64,000 nt of DNA from Podarcis liolepis (lineage: Eukaryota): the NCBI GenBank assembly GCA_965112155.1, contig OZ218107.1; one strand, 5' to 3'. Below are positions 26,870-63,070 of the stretch, in pieces; the stretch's first letter is position 1, and each line of letters starts with the position of its first letter. Made by a program: the position numbers and the translations under genes. A model generated the notes under the pieces. It worked only from the letters and a program-made list of their open reading frames with translations. It made no database searches and had not been told where the DNA came from.

Positions 26870-27530
26870 CAGGAAAAGGTTCCATAAAGGATAACATTCC
26901 TATGAGGAAAGGTTAGAACCTTTTGGACTTTTTGGTTTAGGAAAAAAAGGGGGGCATAACAGATGTCTATGTATGATATGGATAAAATGGATAGGTGGAT
27001 TTCCCCCCCTCTCCCTTTTTCATAATACTAGAACCCAGTAACATTGAATGAAGCTGAAAGTTGGCAAAAGGAAATACTCCTTCTCAAGAGCATGGTTAAA
27101 GCATGGAGTTTGGTCCCGCAAGGTACAGTGATGGTCACCAACTTGGGTGGCATTAAAATGGATTAGGCCAGCGGTTCTCAACCTGTGGGTCCCCAGATGT
27201 TGTTGGGCTACAACTCCCATCATCCCTGAGTTCTGGCCTTGGTAGCTAGGGGTGATGGGAGTTGTAGTTCAACAACATCTGGGGACCCACAGGTTGAGAA
27301 AGCCTGGATTAGGCAAATTCATGGAGAGTAAGGCTCTCAATAACTAGGCATGATGGTTATGGTCTACATTCTGTGTTGGAGGCAACGTGCTTCTACACAG
27401 CAGTTTCTGGGAATCACAATTAGGGAGAGTTCTGTTGCAATCAGGTCCTGTTTGTAGGTTTCCCCTGGGCATCTGGTTGGGACCTGTGAGAACAAGATGC
27501 TGAACTAGATAGGCTTTTAGTCTGTACCAT
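26870..27530 (+). mobile_element. Degenerate CR1-like LINE 3' part, interrupted by a hAT MITE
   Basis: cctatgaggaaaggttag, tagaacc..cattgaatgaagct and aggaaatactccttc motifs; 3' end gatgctgaactagat. Confidence 0.6.
27169..27306. mobile_element. Palindromic hAT MITE (138 bp)
   Basis: 8-bp TSD gattaggc at 27161-68 and 27307-14; the two halves are near-perfect reverse complements. Confidence 0.92.
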
Positions 27531-37830: not shown

Positions 37831-38133
37831 TGTCATGGACTGGCTGGATGCAGAGGAGTGGGGCCAGGAGGCAGATAAGCTGGTTGAGGAAGAAGCCAGA
37901 GAATCTCCCTGTCCTGCTGTGACCAGCTCACCTCCTCCCTGGTGTTTTAGAACTCATAGAGAAATGAAGTGGGTGAGCAGAGCAGAGGAAGGTTGTATCT
38001 GAGTACAACTGTCCTCTGCTCTGCCAACCCACTTCATTTCACAGCCTGAGACTGTGTGGGGAAAACCCTGGAGAGGAGGAGTTCCAAGGGCACTGGGAAG
38101 GTGGGGACCTTCATTCCTTGCAACTGCAAAACC

Positions 38134-38602: not shown

Positions 38603-39085
38603 CTACCTGAGACAAAGTGGGTATCCCCACTTCCCATTCACATACAGAAGCCAACTGGACTGGCAGCTGAATCTAACTTCAAGTGAGGACCACAGGCCAG
38701 CTTAAGGGTGTGTAGGGCAAGCTGCCTTGCACCCACAGCCCTGTCCTCAAACATATTGCCACTGGTTCTAAGTTGGAGGTATTACAATAATATTTAATGG
38801 CTAGAAATATGTGTGTGTCGATGTACAATTTTTAGGAGTATTTTTTGATGAATAAGTGGAGCGTTGGAATGGGAAGCCCACTCATCCTCCTTTGCACTGC
38901 AACACACCCCACTTTTCCATTTCATAGCTTCATAGGGACAGAAATTATGTTGTAATGCTGAAGAAAACAGAAGGTTTGGTATACAGAACTACTCAAGAGA
39001 TTGTACAGTAACTTAATAATGCAGGGTAGCCCTGTGGTGGAGTAAAAACCTATCTGGAGGAAAAGAATGCAACCCTATACTCACT

Positions 39086-39178
39086 GTCTATCTGAAGAAG
39101 TGTGCATGCACACAAAAGCTTATACCCAGAACAATCTTAGTTGGTCTCTAAGGTGCTACTGGACATTTTTTTATTTAT
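39086..39178 (+). mobile_element. Penelope-like element pLTR fragment with mutated hammerhead motif
   Basis: ctgaagaagtgtgcatgcacacAaaagcttatacc..cttagttggtctctaaggtgctactgga; flanking ctatactca(ct) duplication. Confidence 0.75.
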
Positions 39179-39190
39179 CTATACTCACTT

Positions 39191-39534
39191 AAAGGTAAAG
39201 GGACCCCTGACCATTAGGTCTAGTCGCGGACGACTCTGGGGTTGCGGTGCTCATCTCACTTTATTGGCTGAGGGAGCCAGCGTACAGCTTCCGGGTCATG
39301 TGGCCAGCATGACTAAGCTGCTTCTGGCAAAGCAGAGAAGCACATGGAAATGCCATTTACCTTCCTGCGATACCTATTTATCTACTTGCCCTTTGACATG
39401 CTTTCGAACTGCTAGGTTGGCAGGAGCAGGGACCGAGCAACAGGAACTCACCCCGTCATGGGGATTCGAACCGCCGACCTTCTGATTGTCAAGTCCTAGG
39501 CTCTGTGGTTTAACCCACAGTGCCACCCGTGTCC
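39191..39534 (-). mobile_element. Sauria SINE (full length)
   Basis: Reverse complement of the 56376 type; tail aaaggtaaagggacccctg. Confidence 0.95.
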
Positions 39535-39645
39535 TACTCAAGAGATTGTACAGTAACTTAATAATGCAGGGTAGCACTGTGGTAGAGTAAAAACCTATCT
39601 GGAGGAAAAGAAAGCAACCCTATACCCACTGTCTAACTAAAGAAG

Positions 39646-39817: not shown

Positions 39818-42070
39818 AAGAAGTATGCATGCACACGAAAGCTTATACCCAGAACAAACTTAGTTTGTCTCTAAGGTGCTACTGGACAATTTTTTTAATT
39901 ACCTATACTCAGTAGACATGTCAAGGATTGGGCTATTAGTGGGGGCAAGTGAAGGTCTTTGCTAGTGAGGAGAGAAGAAAGAACATTGACTTAAGCTGTT
40001 GTAGATACCTGAAAAGGCCATGCTGAAAAGTAGCCTCCAAATTTCTGATTGGCAGTTGCTCGCTAGGGTTTTAGCCAGGACCGTTCCCCAGTTCTGCATG
40101 GACACACCAGGAACTGAAGCTGGGAGCCTTGTGCATGCAAGGCAGATGACCAACCTGTGGTAAATATTTCTGTGGAGAGGCACCCTGATCAGTCACATGA
40201 AATGAAGTTTCAAGGCAGCTGATAATGATATGCAGTTTGGCTCTGTAAAGCTAAATAAGATTAGAAAGGGATACCAGTTAAGCTTATCTTGTCACTCAGC
40301 ATTTGTTTTGTCAAAGAATGCTGTCAGAAGGGAAGTATTTAGCTTTCCCCAAATTACCTAGAAGTTCTCAATATTCAGATGCTTGAGAATATTAACAGTA
40401 AGCATAGTACCCTTGTTTTAAGAGGAAGGTTATAGCGTAATGCCATCCCCCCCATCATTTTTTTTAAAGAAGTTCTTTTGAGGATCTTTATCTGGAATAA
40501 TCTCTTTAAAGAGAAATCTCAGCAGGCAATTTGGATTGAAACTCAGGGACAAACAGCACATGTTTATTCATTTTTATTTAAATAAACTGCTTCCTGGTGG
40601 GAAACTCTCAGAGCCACAGGTCTGAAAGTTAATTAGACAATTCTATGGCTAAGCATTTGGAGAATATATATGTAACATATAAAGAATGCTTTCCTCTCTC
40701 TTTTAGTGGCATTTGGAAGGTTGCAAGAAGAGCAAAGGGAGCTGGAAAAATATTTTCAAACTTCAAAAGTGGCATATTAGAGCAGTTGAAAGCCTTCTGA
40801 CATTTGGAACTTTGAAACACAATTCACCAGGGTTATTCATTGCCGTAAAGAATGCATTAACCAGAATAATCCCAAAGATAAATTACAATAGTCTGTTGAA
40901 TTGAGCTGTAGTGATTCAATTGTCGTAATTAATTCAAAGGAAAATTACACTACTGACACCAAATGAGAAGAAACCTCATTTCACATAATAAACCTCGGTT
41001 TACTCAAGAATAAGCCACCTTTACAAAGGTAGAATGTGGCCTTATGCAGAGACAATTCATGTGACTTTAATTTACTCACCTACGCCTTTAGAATTAATAA
41101 GCCTAAAACAAATTACCATGGATTCTGATTGGAGGAACCTCTGGCAGTTTCCGGACATTTGGCCGATTACTGCCCAGCCACTGCTGACGAATGTGGTATT
41201 CCATATATTTCCAGGAAATTCTGGACGTATGGCAACCCTATCTCCACAAAGATATTTTCAAATCTTCCACTGGCATGGCATTCATGGATTTACTTATGTT
41301 TCTTTCCAACCCACTGTGTCCGCAACATACTAAAGATGCTGTTTCAAATGTGGCAATTACTTTGCACCCCTGTGCCAATATGATGTTACCCGCCTGAAAC
41401 ATGAGACCACACAGAAGGGCTTTGCATCATTGAATGGAAGGCAGAATTCTTTCCTAGAAGGGTTCGGGAATGACAGAATGAAACGGTCTGCTCACCTCTC
41501 CAGATCGAGGTTCTTCTGATATAGGCAGGTGGTTTAGGGCGCCAGCCTATGTTTTTATTTTATTTTATTTATTTATTTTTACTTAACACATTTATAGACT
41601 GCTTCATAGCATAAAGCCATCGATGGCATGAGCTAGATCAAGAAAGCATGTTTACATTTCTAATTTACATGTCAAATCTTGTAAAATCCTTTCCAACTTT
41701 GAATTACCTGTCATAATTGTATAGATTTGTAGGCCCACGCACTTGTTCCCGGAATGTGGACAAGCTGTTTGCTCGACAGAGTCAATTTCAATGTTTCATT
41801 GATTGTGTGTGCTTTAAGCGACTTGTTCGTCGTGTTTTCATTTTCTCAGCACAAATCCTGAGTCGTTGTTTAAACCTTAGCAGTCTGGCAATACATCCTG
41901 AATTCCCATAGTGCAACACACTTACTGCTAGGGTTCCTGTCTAGCTGTTAGTTTTGCTCATCATAATTTATATCGTAAGGTCCTTTGGGTAGGCACCTGC
42001 CTTTTGCTTAGGATGCTTTGCAAGTTTCCATGTATGCAGAAAGTGCTGCATAAATAACAAAATATTAATA

Positions 42071-42248
42071 AAAAAATTCCTTCCAGTAGCACCTTAAAGA
42101 CCAACTAAGTTAGTTCTTGGTATGAGCTTTCGTGTGCATGCACACTTCTTCAGATACTTCTTCGTAGGAATTCTTCGTAGGAATCCTACTTCGAAGGAAT
42201 TTTTTTATTTTGACTATGGCAGACCAACACGGCTACCTATCTACTACT
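42071..42248 (-). mobile_element. Penelope-like element fragment with partial inverted pLTR
   Basis: aaaaaattccttccagtagc is inverted against cctacttcgaaggaatttttt; 12-bp TSD aaaatattaata at 42059-70 and 42249-60; same sequence family as 39086. Confidence 0.8.
42120..42157 (-). ncRNA. Minimal type I hammerhead ribozyme motif (PLE-type)
   Basis: Minus strand GUAU-CUGAAGA-A-GUGUGCAUGCACAC-GAAA-GCUC-AUAC: helix I GUAU/AUAC, palindromic helix II, intact core and AGCU palindromic helix III. Confidence 0.75.
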
Positions 42249-43038
42249 AAAATATTAATAGTATCAACAGCAGAGGGAGGGATTCATGATGGCAGCCATG
42301 TCTATGAAGCTTTTGCTGTGCTAGATGTCCCCTAAGTTCTCAAAGGTAGGATGCAATGTTTGTGTGTCTGTCAAATGCAAATACATGATTGTATTGCGTT
42401 GGGGCAAGGCGGTGATGTTAAAGGGTTGTGTATTCTCTATGTTGTACTTTCAAGAACATTGTTTTGAAAGGCAAATAGATGAATTTAGCAACAGGGTGGA
42501 ACACACTTATGGGTAAATACAAGTAAACGTGGCACTGTGACTGGGAATAAACTAAGGCCAAACCCAACACTTAAAATGCTGTTATGCTATTTGAACAGTC
42601 ATGAATTTCCCCCAGGAATCCTGGGAGCTAGTGTTTGTTCAGGATAGAGTGAGAGTTGTTAGGAGACCCCCTTCCCAGAGCTACAGTTCCCAGCACCCTT
42701 TTAACTTCTGTTTCCAGGAATCTTTGAGGAAATGATGGTTGTTAGAGAGGTATAACAATGCTTTAAATGTATTTTGTGGATGTGCTCTGAGTTGCTCATC
42801 ACTGCCGTGTGAGTATAGTGGAAAGAAGCAGGGGTAGTCAAATGAGGCCTGTTGGAATTGATGCAACAAAATCCCTGATATAGACTGTTTGGACCGTGTG
42901 CAAAAATGAATAAGCTTTCCACCCCAAGGATGAGTTCCAAAGCTTCACTGAAACAGTCCTGAGCAGTTATAATAAACATTGCATAGAACAAATTTACACA
43001 TTGCTCTCAAGTAGCAGACAATGTGGTTCAGTCCTTTA

Positions 43039-58772: not shown

Positions 58773-59508
58773 TATTTCATTCACTTGCGAGTCTGGTACC
58801 CATAGGACTACATCTGCCATGATTTCTATTATCCACAACAGATATTGTATATTATTAGAGTTTTAGATCATCATAACACAAAATGCCCCAAGGAACAATG
58901 GGGGCAGAGCCATATATATCTTAATGCATACGGCTCATGACAACCATTTGTGCTCTGGCAACATCTTTTTCTCCAGGCATGGAAAAGTGAATTGTGCCAC
59001 TGGGTGAGAAATGCTGTAATTAGCCATTGTGGTAGGGAGGGGTGGTGTAGAGTTAGAGATAATGCTCTTGAAAATTATAGTACCATTTAAATAATTAAAC
59101 TTGCTGCAAAGATATATGCCAAGATTTTAGTGACAAAGACTCAAGATTTATAGACAAATTAATGCACAGGGACCAACTTGAATTCATGAGGCGTAGAATA
59201 ATTGCAGACTGGTTAAGGCAGGTTTTTCTCTGAATGCAAATTACTCGTGAACTGATATGGAGATCTCAACATGGCAAATTCCATCAACACCTTAGGAGGG
59301 CCAGGGTTTTTTAGTTGCCTGTTTTTAAAGCTTAATATAGTCAAGAGACTTTTGTTGCTGCTGCTTTTGTTTGGCATGGCCTGTTGATGAAATCACACAC
59401 ATTCGGTGCCTTCCATCTTGGTGTTTTAGCTATAAACAACTACACATACCTATACAATTTATTCACTGCAACACTGATGAGATTCCTTCAGTGTGAAACT
59501 TCAAATAT

Positions 59509-60177
59509 GTGGTAGGGCTCATTTCAGGAGGGGATGAGTCCGCCTATCGGGACGAGGTGGAGCGGCTCTGTGTTTGGTGTGGAGAGAACAATCTGGCTCT
59601 TAATACGGCTAAGACCAAGGAACTGGTGGTGGATTACAGGAAAAAAAAGGCGGACATTCAGCCCTTGTATATCAACGGGGAACGGGTGGAGAGGGTGGCG
59701 GAATTCAGGTTTTTGGGAGTAGCTATCGATCAGGGCATGACTTGGAGCGCACATACCACTGCTCTGGTGAAGAAGGCCCAGCAGAGAATTTATTTCCTCA
59801 GACTTTTAAAGAAGAACAATCTGAGTGAGAGACTGCTGGTGTCCTTCTACCGAGGCTCCATAGAGAGCATTCTTACATACTGTATTTGTGCTTGGTTCTC
59901 CAGTTGTACAGCTAGGGAGAGGAAGGTGCTCCAGAAGGTCATAACCACAGCCCAAAGGATTATTGGTCATCCTCTCCCATCTTTGGAAGAACTGTACGGT
60001 TCCCGTTGTCTTAGGAAAGCAAATAATATCCTGCAGGATTCATCTCACCCGGGACACGGTCTGTTTGCACTACTGCCTTCTGGCAGGAGATATAGAAGCA
60101 TCAAGTCAAAGACAAATAGACTGAAAAACAGTTTCTATCCAAGAGCTGTGGCCTTTTTGAATGCTGTAACTCGATAG
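59509..60177 (+). CDS. Rex1/Babar reverse transcriptase C-terminal region (retrotransposon remnant)
   Basis: VGLIS..DESAYR.EV..L..WC..NNL.LN..KTKE.VVD.R, FRFLGV, KKAQQR.YFLR, IESILTY, HP.H.LF.LLPSGRRYRS..T.RL.NSF.P.A; no stops or frameshifts. Confidence 0.88.
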   Translation: MVGLISGGDESAYRDEVERLCVWCGENNLALNTAKTKELVVDYRKKKADIQPLYINGERVERVAEFRFLGVAIDQGMTWSAHTTALVKKAQQRIYFLRLLKKNNLSERLLVSFYRGSIESILTYCICAWFSSCTARERKVLQKVITTAQRIIGHPLPSLEELYGSRCLRKANNILQDSSHPGHGLFALLPSGRRYRSIKSKTNRLKNSFYPRAVAFLNAVTR

Positions 60178-60351
60178 TGTGACCTGGGAGTTTGATGGGT
60201 GTGGTGTGGGTGTGGCTGGAATGTGGTTTGTTTGGTTGTTGTTGTTGTTTTGCTTTTGTTGTTTTAAGGCATGACATCCAATTTCGTTGCACTTTGTGCA
60301 ATGTTGCACTTGTGTAATGACAATAAAGAATCTATTCTATTCTATTCTATT
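59512..60351 (+). mobile_element. 5'-truncated Rex1/Babar-clade LINE
   Basis: RT C-terminal ORF, short 3'UTR, AATAAA near 60322 and a (TCTAT)n tail. Confidence 0.92.
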
Positions 60352-63070
60352 CTATAAACAACTACACATACCTATACAATTTATTCACTGCAACACTGAT
60401 GAGATTCCTTCAGTGTGAAACTTCAAATATGTGAACTTTCAGTCAGCCATTTATTTGCTACCTATACGAAGAAGAAAATAAATAAGGATATATTTTACAA
60501 ACTCAACCAACTTAAATCCAGCAGGTCCCATACTCACTGTAGACCCATTGAAATGGATGAGAAAATGCTTCTCCAGCCTTCTAGACCAAGTCATGCAGTT
60601 CCCATCACTTTGGAGTACAAAATTAGTAGCAGTCTGAACAACTTCCTTCCTAATTAACATTTGACCACTCATCATGGTCCCCAAAGGTGCTATGAGTACC
60701 TTCCCTGGATACATGCATTAACTGTGCTGGGCAGCCTGTCAATCAATGCCGTCTGGCTGCAATCATTTTCTCCTGTTTATCATTTGGACATCATCATCAT
60801 ATGTTTAAATTAGGATTGGTTGAAAATGACCTGAAGCTCACTCTATTTAAACAAAAAGAAAGGAAAAGGGGAAATGGCAAAGTCTAGTGCACTGATACAA
60901 CACTGGAATTAATTTACCTGGAATTAATTAACAAGCACGTCACTATATTTTGCGTTCTTCATATGAAACAGGTTCTGATTGAGAGCTTTCAGGGGCATCT
61001 AGTTGGCATCCATGAGAAAAGGATGCTGGACTATATCATCTCACTACAAAAAAGTAATTGTCATCTGGTCATCTCACTACAAAAATGCAATTGCCTTCAA
61101 TATGCTATTAACAATTGGTTTTCATTATTCATGCTGATACATACTAGGAACAATTTGACTGTGGTTAGATGTATCCCTGACATATTCATGGAGCTGGTCT
61201 CTGACTTCAGTTGATTGATTGGCATATCCTACCACAGCTATTGGGATGTGATATAGTACCTGGCAAAAAAATATTAATGTAATCAAACGCAAGCCATGGA
61301 AAATTAATCAGTGGGATGGGAACCAGCAACAACCTTACGAAGAAGAAGATGAGACTTTCCTTTGAATAGCTTTACATGCTTCAGAGTACAATGTTGGTTC
61401 ACACCATCCTCCTAGTGCTTTACAAACTGGGTTAAAGTGCTTATGGAGAGCATGAGATCTGTGTTAAATTGGCTGTTTGTTTAGCACTTGGGGGGTGAGC
61501 AAGTTTACATGGAACTCTGACACTGTCATGGTGATCCCATCTTCTGTATGTCTAATGAAGGGAGGAAAGGAACAGCTTTGCTGCAGTTTTGATGCTCACC
61601 ACAGCATGCCAACTCAACATGTTATGTGCCAGAAGCTCATGCAAATAAACCCCGAATTACCACAGAAAAGGAAAGGAGTGACTGAATCTAGTTATGAGGC
61701 TTAGCAATGCATGATTGGTTCCTATCAAGACTTTGGCTTCTCTGCAGTTCTGGACAACTGAGTACAACGTCTTTGAGAAGAAATTGGACTAAACTAAAAA
61801 CAAATCTGGGTGTTTCATCTCTTCAGAGGCATACCAGATGAGATTGAACTGTAAGAGGCCAAGGAATCAATGCCTGGGCATATGGCAGTTTCAGGCAGAT
61901 TAGAGGGAGCTGATGCCTGAAGTAAAAGCTGAACATTTGGGGAAGTACATGAACATTGGCTATCAAGAATGAGTCAGCAAGATAAATGCTACCTTTGAGA
62001 ACTGGGCAAGTAGTGCAGTGTAGGAACATATATTTGCTTTACTTATATATACAGGAAAAATGATGACATACCAGACCCAAAGAGGAATGCTTGTGTAGCT
62101 AGCAATTGGTAGCTTTAGCAGATTGCCTCCTAGTGTGCACAAAACAATATTATTTCTCACCTTAAGCGAGATATAGAGTTTAGCCTTCCCTCCTGGGAAG
62201 ACCCCACATGATTGTAAATAAATGCTAGATTACAAAATGGTTGAAATGGGAGGCTGAACCAGAAAAATAGAGAGGTGCAGCAATGACTTCAGCTGTTTAA
62301 CCCCCTCTTAGAATTGTATCATTGGCAATGTAAAGGCATGTCTTAAAAGACCTGGGAACATAGACCTAGCACAAAAAACTTGTCCCTCATTTATTTTGAT
62401 ATGGGAATTTTGGTTCTCAGCACTGGTTAATGAGTGCAAAGAGACTTTCAGAACAGGCACAGAAGCTACTGCAGCTGGCTAATTCCAACAAATAACTCTC
62501 ACACTAATTAACTAGTTGTGTGACCAGAGTAACAGAACATAGGAATATAGGAAGCTGAGTTAGCCAGATCCTTGGCCCATCTAATTTAGCACTGTTGATA
62601 CTTCAAGAAGAAGTCCTTCCCAGCTCCATATGAAGATGCCAGTCATTGAATGTGGTATCTTTTGCTCACAAAACATGTGCTCCACCACTGAGTCATGCCC
62701 TTTACCCATTATGTTGAAAGGGGACAGCCGTGTGAGATATCCCCTTTCACATAATGTACAAGTTGTGACTTTTCTATTTCTGAAAGAAGAACTGTGATCT
62801 TTGAGTTTTCTCTTCCAAGGTTGTTCTGCTCACTTGAGTAGCTTAGTTTACATGATTTGTGGAACTTGGTTAACTGAAAGATCACCCGTTTTGCATATGC
62901 CTAATTGACCTTCGACGCCCTTTTTGGTTGCCCTGCTCCAGATGTCCCTGTCATGGGGTGGCTACCAAATAGAGGGTAATTGTTTTTTGGTAGTGACACT
63001 CTGACTGTAGAATCACCTCCCCAGAGCAGCTCACCTGGCACTTTCTCTATGGTCTTATCGGTACCAAGTA

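Follow-up and report, generated by a model that had tools for sequence, protein, structure and literature searches.

A minimal hammerhead ribozyme motif in a head-to-head Penelope-like insertion of Podarcis liolepis and the family to which it belongs

Introduction

Minimal hammerhead ribozyme motifs have been described in the pLTRs of Penelope-like elements (PLEs), those of reptiles included (PMC4209133; also PMC6765202, PMC2377424 and bioRxiv 10.64898/2026.07.22.740005), and published work also covers PLE insertions with 5'-truncated arms in inverted orientation and a tail on one side, as well as TATA/Inr-like motifs (PMC8557442, PMC3846280), the TATA and Inr-like motifs having been noted in a rotifer pLTR. 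Monomers of the PLE minimal hammerheads remained uncleaved in vitro and dimers cleaved weakly (PMC4209133). For a PLE of the green anole, two internal priming sites, cutting of both strands and protein-assisted cleavage are documented, the motif having needed the element's own protein to cleave (PMC11167929). The statistics of a large family may matter for two questions, namely what role the hammerhead plays in PLEs and how head-to-head insertions originate.

Here we describe such a motif in a stretch of 64,000 nt from Podarcis liolepis (contig OZ218107.1; hereafter the window). Our reading, with a probability of roughly 0.8, is that an abundant PLE has left its standard minimal hammerhead in a 178-bp head-to-head stub, likely inert there, and that the stubs of this family derive from an uncut template, priming at two sites and a start at a promoter.

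Results

The motif and its insertion

Between 42157 and 42120, the letters of the minus strand agree exactly with those given in the first-pass annotation (Table 1). The core CUGANGAH and the element GAAAN-palindrome-NUH, by which PLE hammerheads are recognised, are represented by CUGAAGAA and by GAAA-G-C-U-C, and G10.1-C11.1, an unpaired base between 9 and 10.1, a short helix I and a longer helix II are all present (features as set out in PMC4209133). With the published consensus matched and a parental RT-GIY-YIG ORF found (see below), the earlier identification as a PLE minimal type I hammerhead was upheld; the motif is textbook for PLEs, and the site is mostly ordinary. Rfam, which had been suggested as a check, did not recover it: canonical hammerhead covariance models left the motif unmatched anywhere in the window, none of the 28 window matches at E up to 10 being a hammerhead.

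Table 1. Coordinates of the hammerhead motif, of the insertion that carries it and of related copies in the window
Feature	Position	Strand	Remarks
Minimal type I hammerhead motif, 38 nt	42120..42157	-	predicted cut 42124/42123; agrees with the consensus of the PMC4209133 supplement
Helix I	42157-42154 with 42123-42120	-	4 bp
Core C3-A9	42153-42147	-	sequence
Single extra A after core C3-A9	42146	-	sequence
Helix II, perfect 14-nt palindrome	42132..42145	-	alone, hairpin of 5 bp with 4-nt loop; between two molecules, 14-bp duplex
G12-A15.1	42131-42128	-	sequence
AGCU palindrome	42128-42125	-	sequence
C17	42124	-	sets the predicted cleavage site, 42124/42123
Left target-site duplication, 12 bp	42059..42070	+	identical to 42249-42260; last 4 bases also match the T-rich end of the element
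Arm 1, pLTR end without tail, from helix I (first base) to T-run	42071..42157	-	= parent L045:2151-2237, 87/87 identical
Junction filler, 35 nt, short repeated pieces resembling element ends	42158..42192		sequence; similar fillers at other loci
Arm 2, short pLTR end and tail	42193..42248	+	56 nt; = parent L045:2225-2279, 55/56 columns identical
Right target-site duplication, 12 bp	42249..42260	+	sequence
Older copy of the same family	39086..39176	+	88% identical; G12 to A, core broken
Older copy of the same family	39818..39895	+	89% identical; starts within the core, lacking CUG; adjoins a (TTA)n run

The minimum-energy fold of the isolated 38-mer contains both helices, with a stability no better than that of shuffled sequences (z -0.44; 61 of 200 shuffles were as good). 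A loose core pattern matched the window five times against 1.36 expected, a number reached by none of 100 shuffles; two of the core-like matches, at 59474 and 60396, are without helix II (a simple hairpin, judged by eye). The motif is not a product of chance, because its 32-nt core occurs in 11,832 exact copies in the 1.57-Gb genome, as against none for the reversed control.

That the motif belongs to a tiny PLE insertion, as had been proposed, proved right, while the insertion extends well beyond the motif at 42120-42157: it is a head-to-head structure of 178 bp (42071-42248) flanked by a 12-bp target duplication. The motif forms the 5' end of the 87-nt arm 1, which runs on the minus strand from 42157 to 42071, and the tail of arm 2 corresponds, by translation, to the first codons of the parent ORF. 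Little can be made of the earlier emphasis on intactness, since arm 1 is 100% identical to the parent and the exact 38-mer was present in 61 of 100 sampled arms; the motif is intact here because the insertion is young, and not because of selection at the site. The window holds no second intact copy on the same strand, its other two copies being damaged and on the opposite strand. A 112-nt duplication (38989-39100 and 39534-39645, 95% identical) runs into the older copy at 39086.

The parent element and its relatives

The parent was found as a tandem and inverted array on contig C3 at approximately 23.28 Mb (loci L044/L045) with two intact PLE ORFs of 910 aa; the array unit measures 3008 bp and two units differ at 1 of 2826 bases. 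Judged from these sequences, the family is very young. The single ORF encodes an RT and, at its C terminus, a GIY-YIG domain (Pfam RVT_1 and GIY-YIG), with the motifs DKG and YIDD and two cysteines between GIY and YIG. Its RT-EN linker is of the form CX4CxxC (CNKPRCQLC at residue 770) and thus satisfies CX2-5CxxC, which PMC8557442 gives as a Neptune feature, common to Nematis; the protein points to a parent of Neptune or Nematis type. Its closest named relatives are turtle proteins with 61-69% identity.

In the parent pLTR, the hammerhead occupies L045:2151-2188, between the ORF stop and the next ATG and sense to the ORF, and lies 96 nt upstream of the start codon. A GIY-YIG search of the genome yielded 13 loci, and in 12 of them the motif adjoins the nuclease. 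Both the copy number and the link to an RT-GIY-YIG ORF, which the first-pass annotation had proposed to look for, are now in hand. The traits of EN+ PLEs are all present, namely a partial tandem forming pLTRs, an inverted copy, a one-sided tail and a target duplication.

Both helices are retained among older relatives within this genome, seven of which show compensatory changes. For these loci, 7 selected by eye out of 30 retrieved by a search that itself fixed the core, both sides have changed in 6 of 11 pairs (covariation 0.364 versus 0.175 when shuffled), which suggests that the fold matters to the parent elements. Several further repeated hammerhead-like families (L124-L152), with the same core and a different helix II, occur in the genome. 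A looser genome-wide pattern gave 1,045 matches compared with 750 for its control, and single matches of this pattern are therefore weak.

Where copies begin

The 5' ends of arms were mapped, with gaps allowed, in the first 100 matches of the 24-mer starting at the cut site, taken from the first 4.7 Mb of contig C1; three were censored at the fetch edge, and the sample is richer in long copies than genome counts suggest, 46 of the 100 extending further upstream. The 8 nt just before and at the front of the ribozyme (L045:2147-2154) received the ends of 39 out of 85 arms at risk, that is, 0.057 per nt against 0.002-0.007 elsewhere, and another 15 of the 100 had their 5' ends inside the motif (2155-2176). 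The cut site and the 8 nt preceding it received no 5' end (0/100; 95% upper bound approximately 3%). Exact counts across the genome follow the same course: 13,739 of 16,232 copies (85%) run 10 nt on past the cut, and only 3,506 of 11,832 (30%) run 17 nt on past the putative start at 2148, where approximately 75% would be expected at the cut-crossing rate by our arithmetic. As the sequence across the cut site is retained, the stubs were copied from uncut RNA. It should be noted that the missing ends do not prove the ribozyme inactive, since cut RNA might be a poor template.

The parent has a TATATAG at L045:2118, 30 nt before the A (2148) of TCAGT, and transcription likely starts at this putative TATA/Inr-like pLTR promoter, 2-3 nt upstream of helix I. 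The same spot also offers a pyrimidine run with CAG (TTTCAG/TG, L045:2144-2151), and according to PMC4209133 the intron of Drosophila Penelope ends at helix I, so that the pile-up of 5' ends might be explained by a splice acceptor. We regard this as quite unlikely: the 42 arms beginning at 2145-2154 share no upstream exon, their commonest 12-mer being found only twice, several arms directly abut the target duplication, and no joint into 2150 is among the RNA joints listed.

Where copies end and how arms are paired

The 3' ends of arms fall into two groups, at about L045:2237-2249 and 2273-2288. Among 32 head-to-head pairs, 30 had exactly one tail, two had two tails and none was without a tail (p 1.2e-7); the flanks were duplicated over 12-16 nt in 26 of the 32, mostly 12-14 nt. 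Two groups of ends, with one of each in 30 of the 32 pairs, fit the two priming sites and the both-strand cutting described for an anole PLE in PMC11167929. The one-tail rule is also better accommodated by two priming events than by self-priming on an antisense template, a route proposed for rotifer PLEs (PMC3846280). That route, or stalling of the enzyme at the folded ribozyme, could replace run-off at the RNA start as the origin of the stubs, and the 15 ends within the motif, some of them at the palindrome, would agree with it. However, if structure in the sense RNA blocked the enzyme, copies should stop at the 3' side of helix I, and none of the 100 ends was located there; we consider this origin unlikely.

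The copy number of the stubs is very high and their length short and uniform, as in a self-propagating non-autonomous family (a SINE or retrozyme). However, junctions and arm lengths differ from insertion to insertion, the stubs do not include the TATA-like box, the ribozyme units are not arranged here in a tandem array and the arms match the parent directly, which makes such a family most improbable.

RNA reads

Family reads from four RNA runs (fragmented libraries, matched by species label) cross the cut site at steady depth in 4/4. Read ends at the predicted cut, which had been named earlier as a sign of cleavage, did not pile up in any of the four, in reads that come from many loci. Because 87-97% of the reads run on into other sequence, i.e. 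many loci, they are not assignable to the locus at 42120-42157, and a run search listed no RNA run for 42071-42248 itself. Mixed flanks were seen at L045:2149/2151 and 2237/2273. A joint leading from L045:2339 to 2148, 192 nt back to the predicted start base, occurs in two single-cell runs (7 and 12 reads) and is absent from two bulk runs; it could reflect one tandem copy in the genome, a jump between templates or a circle.

Folding and cleavage

Helix I had a predicted probability of 0.00 in 320 nt of local context. The active dimer was predicted at -11.1 to -13.0 kcal/mol, as compared with -13.6 for two monomers and -28.0 for the helix II duplex; the active dimer thus offers no advantage over monomers, and the inactive helix II duplex is favoured over it by 15-17 kcal/mol. 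Neither Mg2+ nor tertiary contacts nor proteins enter into these energies. For a natural relative whose palindrome is not perfect, a smaller gain from dimerising was predicted (-10.0 versus -17.0). In the parent leader, helix I had a probability of 0.42-0.48 when the tail was present and of 0.00 when it was not; within L045:2148-2285 the tail is predicted to pair with a stretch that otherwise sequesters the core, which raises helix I from 0.00 to about 0.47.

The first-pass annotation had suggested that the site could self-cleave if transcribed, probably with a second copy in trans, and these predictions lend that suggestion no support: helix I would be unformed, the active dimer unfavourable and the lone copy at 42120-42157 is likely inert at its site. 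A ribozyme that cuts host transcripts through the locus by pairing with another copy would have all core bases and G10.1-C11.1 at its disposal, thousands of identical partners and family sequence present in RNA, and dimers of such motifs do cleave weakly in vitro (PMC4209133). We nevertheless hold it to be very unlikely in view of the folding energies, of the read ends, which are not piled at the cut, and of the published behaviour of monomers, which remained uncleaved (PMC4209133), and of the anole motif, which needed protein (PMC11167929). If true, trans cleavage of host RNAs by copies would affect many transcripts, for which we found no support here.

Other features of the window

A Pfam search of the 147 stop-to-stop frames of at least 75 aa in the window returned a single match (59497-60174), and therefore neither a host exon nor the strand of a host gene could be assigned. 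An exact direct repeat of 82 nt, its copies 922 nt apart, surrounds a 226-aa frame matching ALKBH8_N (PF09004) at 59430-60433, which is likely a retroelement fragment; the repeat contains a core-like string without helix II. Long hairpins at 27196-27279 and 37961-38040, for which both strands gave Rfam microRNA matches below threshold, are likely repeat-derived.

Discussion

The stub at 42071-42248 would be explained by the following course of events. The element's protein would make a staggered cut in the target DNA, and cDNA would be primed from both DNA ends at two sites approximately 35 nt apart near the ORF start, giving one tail-less and one tailed arm. Copying would run off the 5' end of the RNA, probably at the TATA/Inr-like promoter, and the two cDNAs would be joined head to head with filler. 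A transcript through the locus is predicted to form helix II and not helix I, with no appreciable cleavage; if the ribozyme has a real role, we would expect it in tandem transcripts of the parent, helped by the element's protein.

A wider proposal, for which we see about even odds, is that the stubs record the cycle of a Neptune-type PLE. In this cycle, RNA started at the promoter just before the hammerhead would serve uncut as the template, with priming at two sites and synthesis onto the two ends of a single staggered cut, while the ribozyme would be held off by folding until protein binds; both the alternative pairing relieved by the tail and the palindromic helix II, which could pair two RNAs, may contribute to this restraint. 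Whatever the case, a ready test system is offered by this family, which is very young, has an intact parent and numbers more than 10,000 identical copies.

The literature searched (Repbase, Dfam and subscription papers lying outside it) contained no paper on this P. liolepis family, nor, in the parts available, any account of 5' ends clustering at the front edge of the ribozyme, although Fig. S2 of PMC11167929 maps copy ends and may already show it. The window motif fits the consensus of the minimal hammerheads of PMC4209133 at every position. The Chrysemys picta entry in the supplement of that paper has likewise a 4-bp helix I, the core CUGAAGAA, a 5-bp helix II and GAAA-GC-U-H, and differs from the window motif by one compensatory pair in helix I, one in helix II and another helix II loop; the cleavage triplet is CUC here and CUU there, and only the loop of the window motif makes helix II a perfect palindrome. 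A word search of one supplement file of PMC4209133 gave no Anolis or lizard entry.

EN+ PLE insertion units, as described in PMC8557442 and PMC3846280, consist of an inverted 5'-truncated copy with a one-sided tail of 30-40 bp, and share with the stubs studied here the head-to-head arms, the one-sided tail and the short target duplication. Non-LTR retrozymes (bioRxiv 10.64898/2026.07.22.740005) likewise have a type I hammerhead, PLE origin and no protein; an assignment to them was rejected, as retrozymes carry two or more complete hammerheads in consecutive, tandemly arranged units, whereas here only one intact motif lies in an inverted stub. The green anole element Poseidon_Ac (Frangieh et al. 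2024, PMC11167929) has the hammerhead at the junction of pLTR and ORF, a tail from the ORF start and two 3' end sites in common with our family, and likewise an uncut RNA template and no RNA-seq ends at the cut. The two differ in the CX2-5CxxC linker, present in our parent and absent from Poseidon, in the start codon, which lies 62 nt past the cut here and inside helix II in Poseidon_Ac, and in the tail, which begins approximately at the start codon here and about 110 nt into the ORF in Poseidon_Ac.
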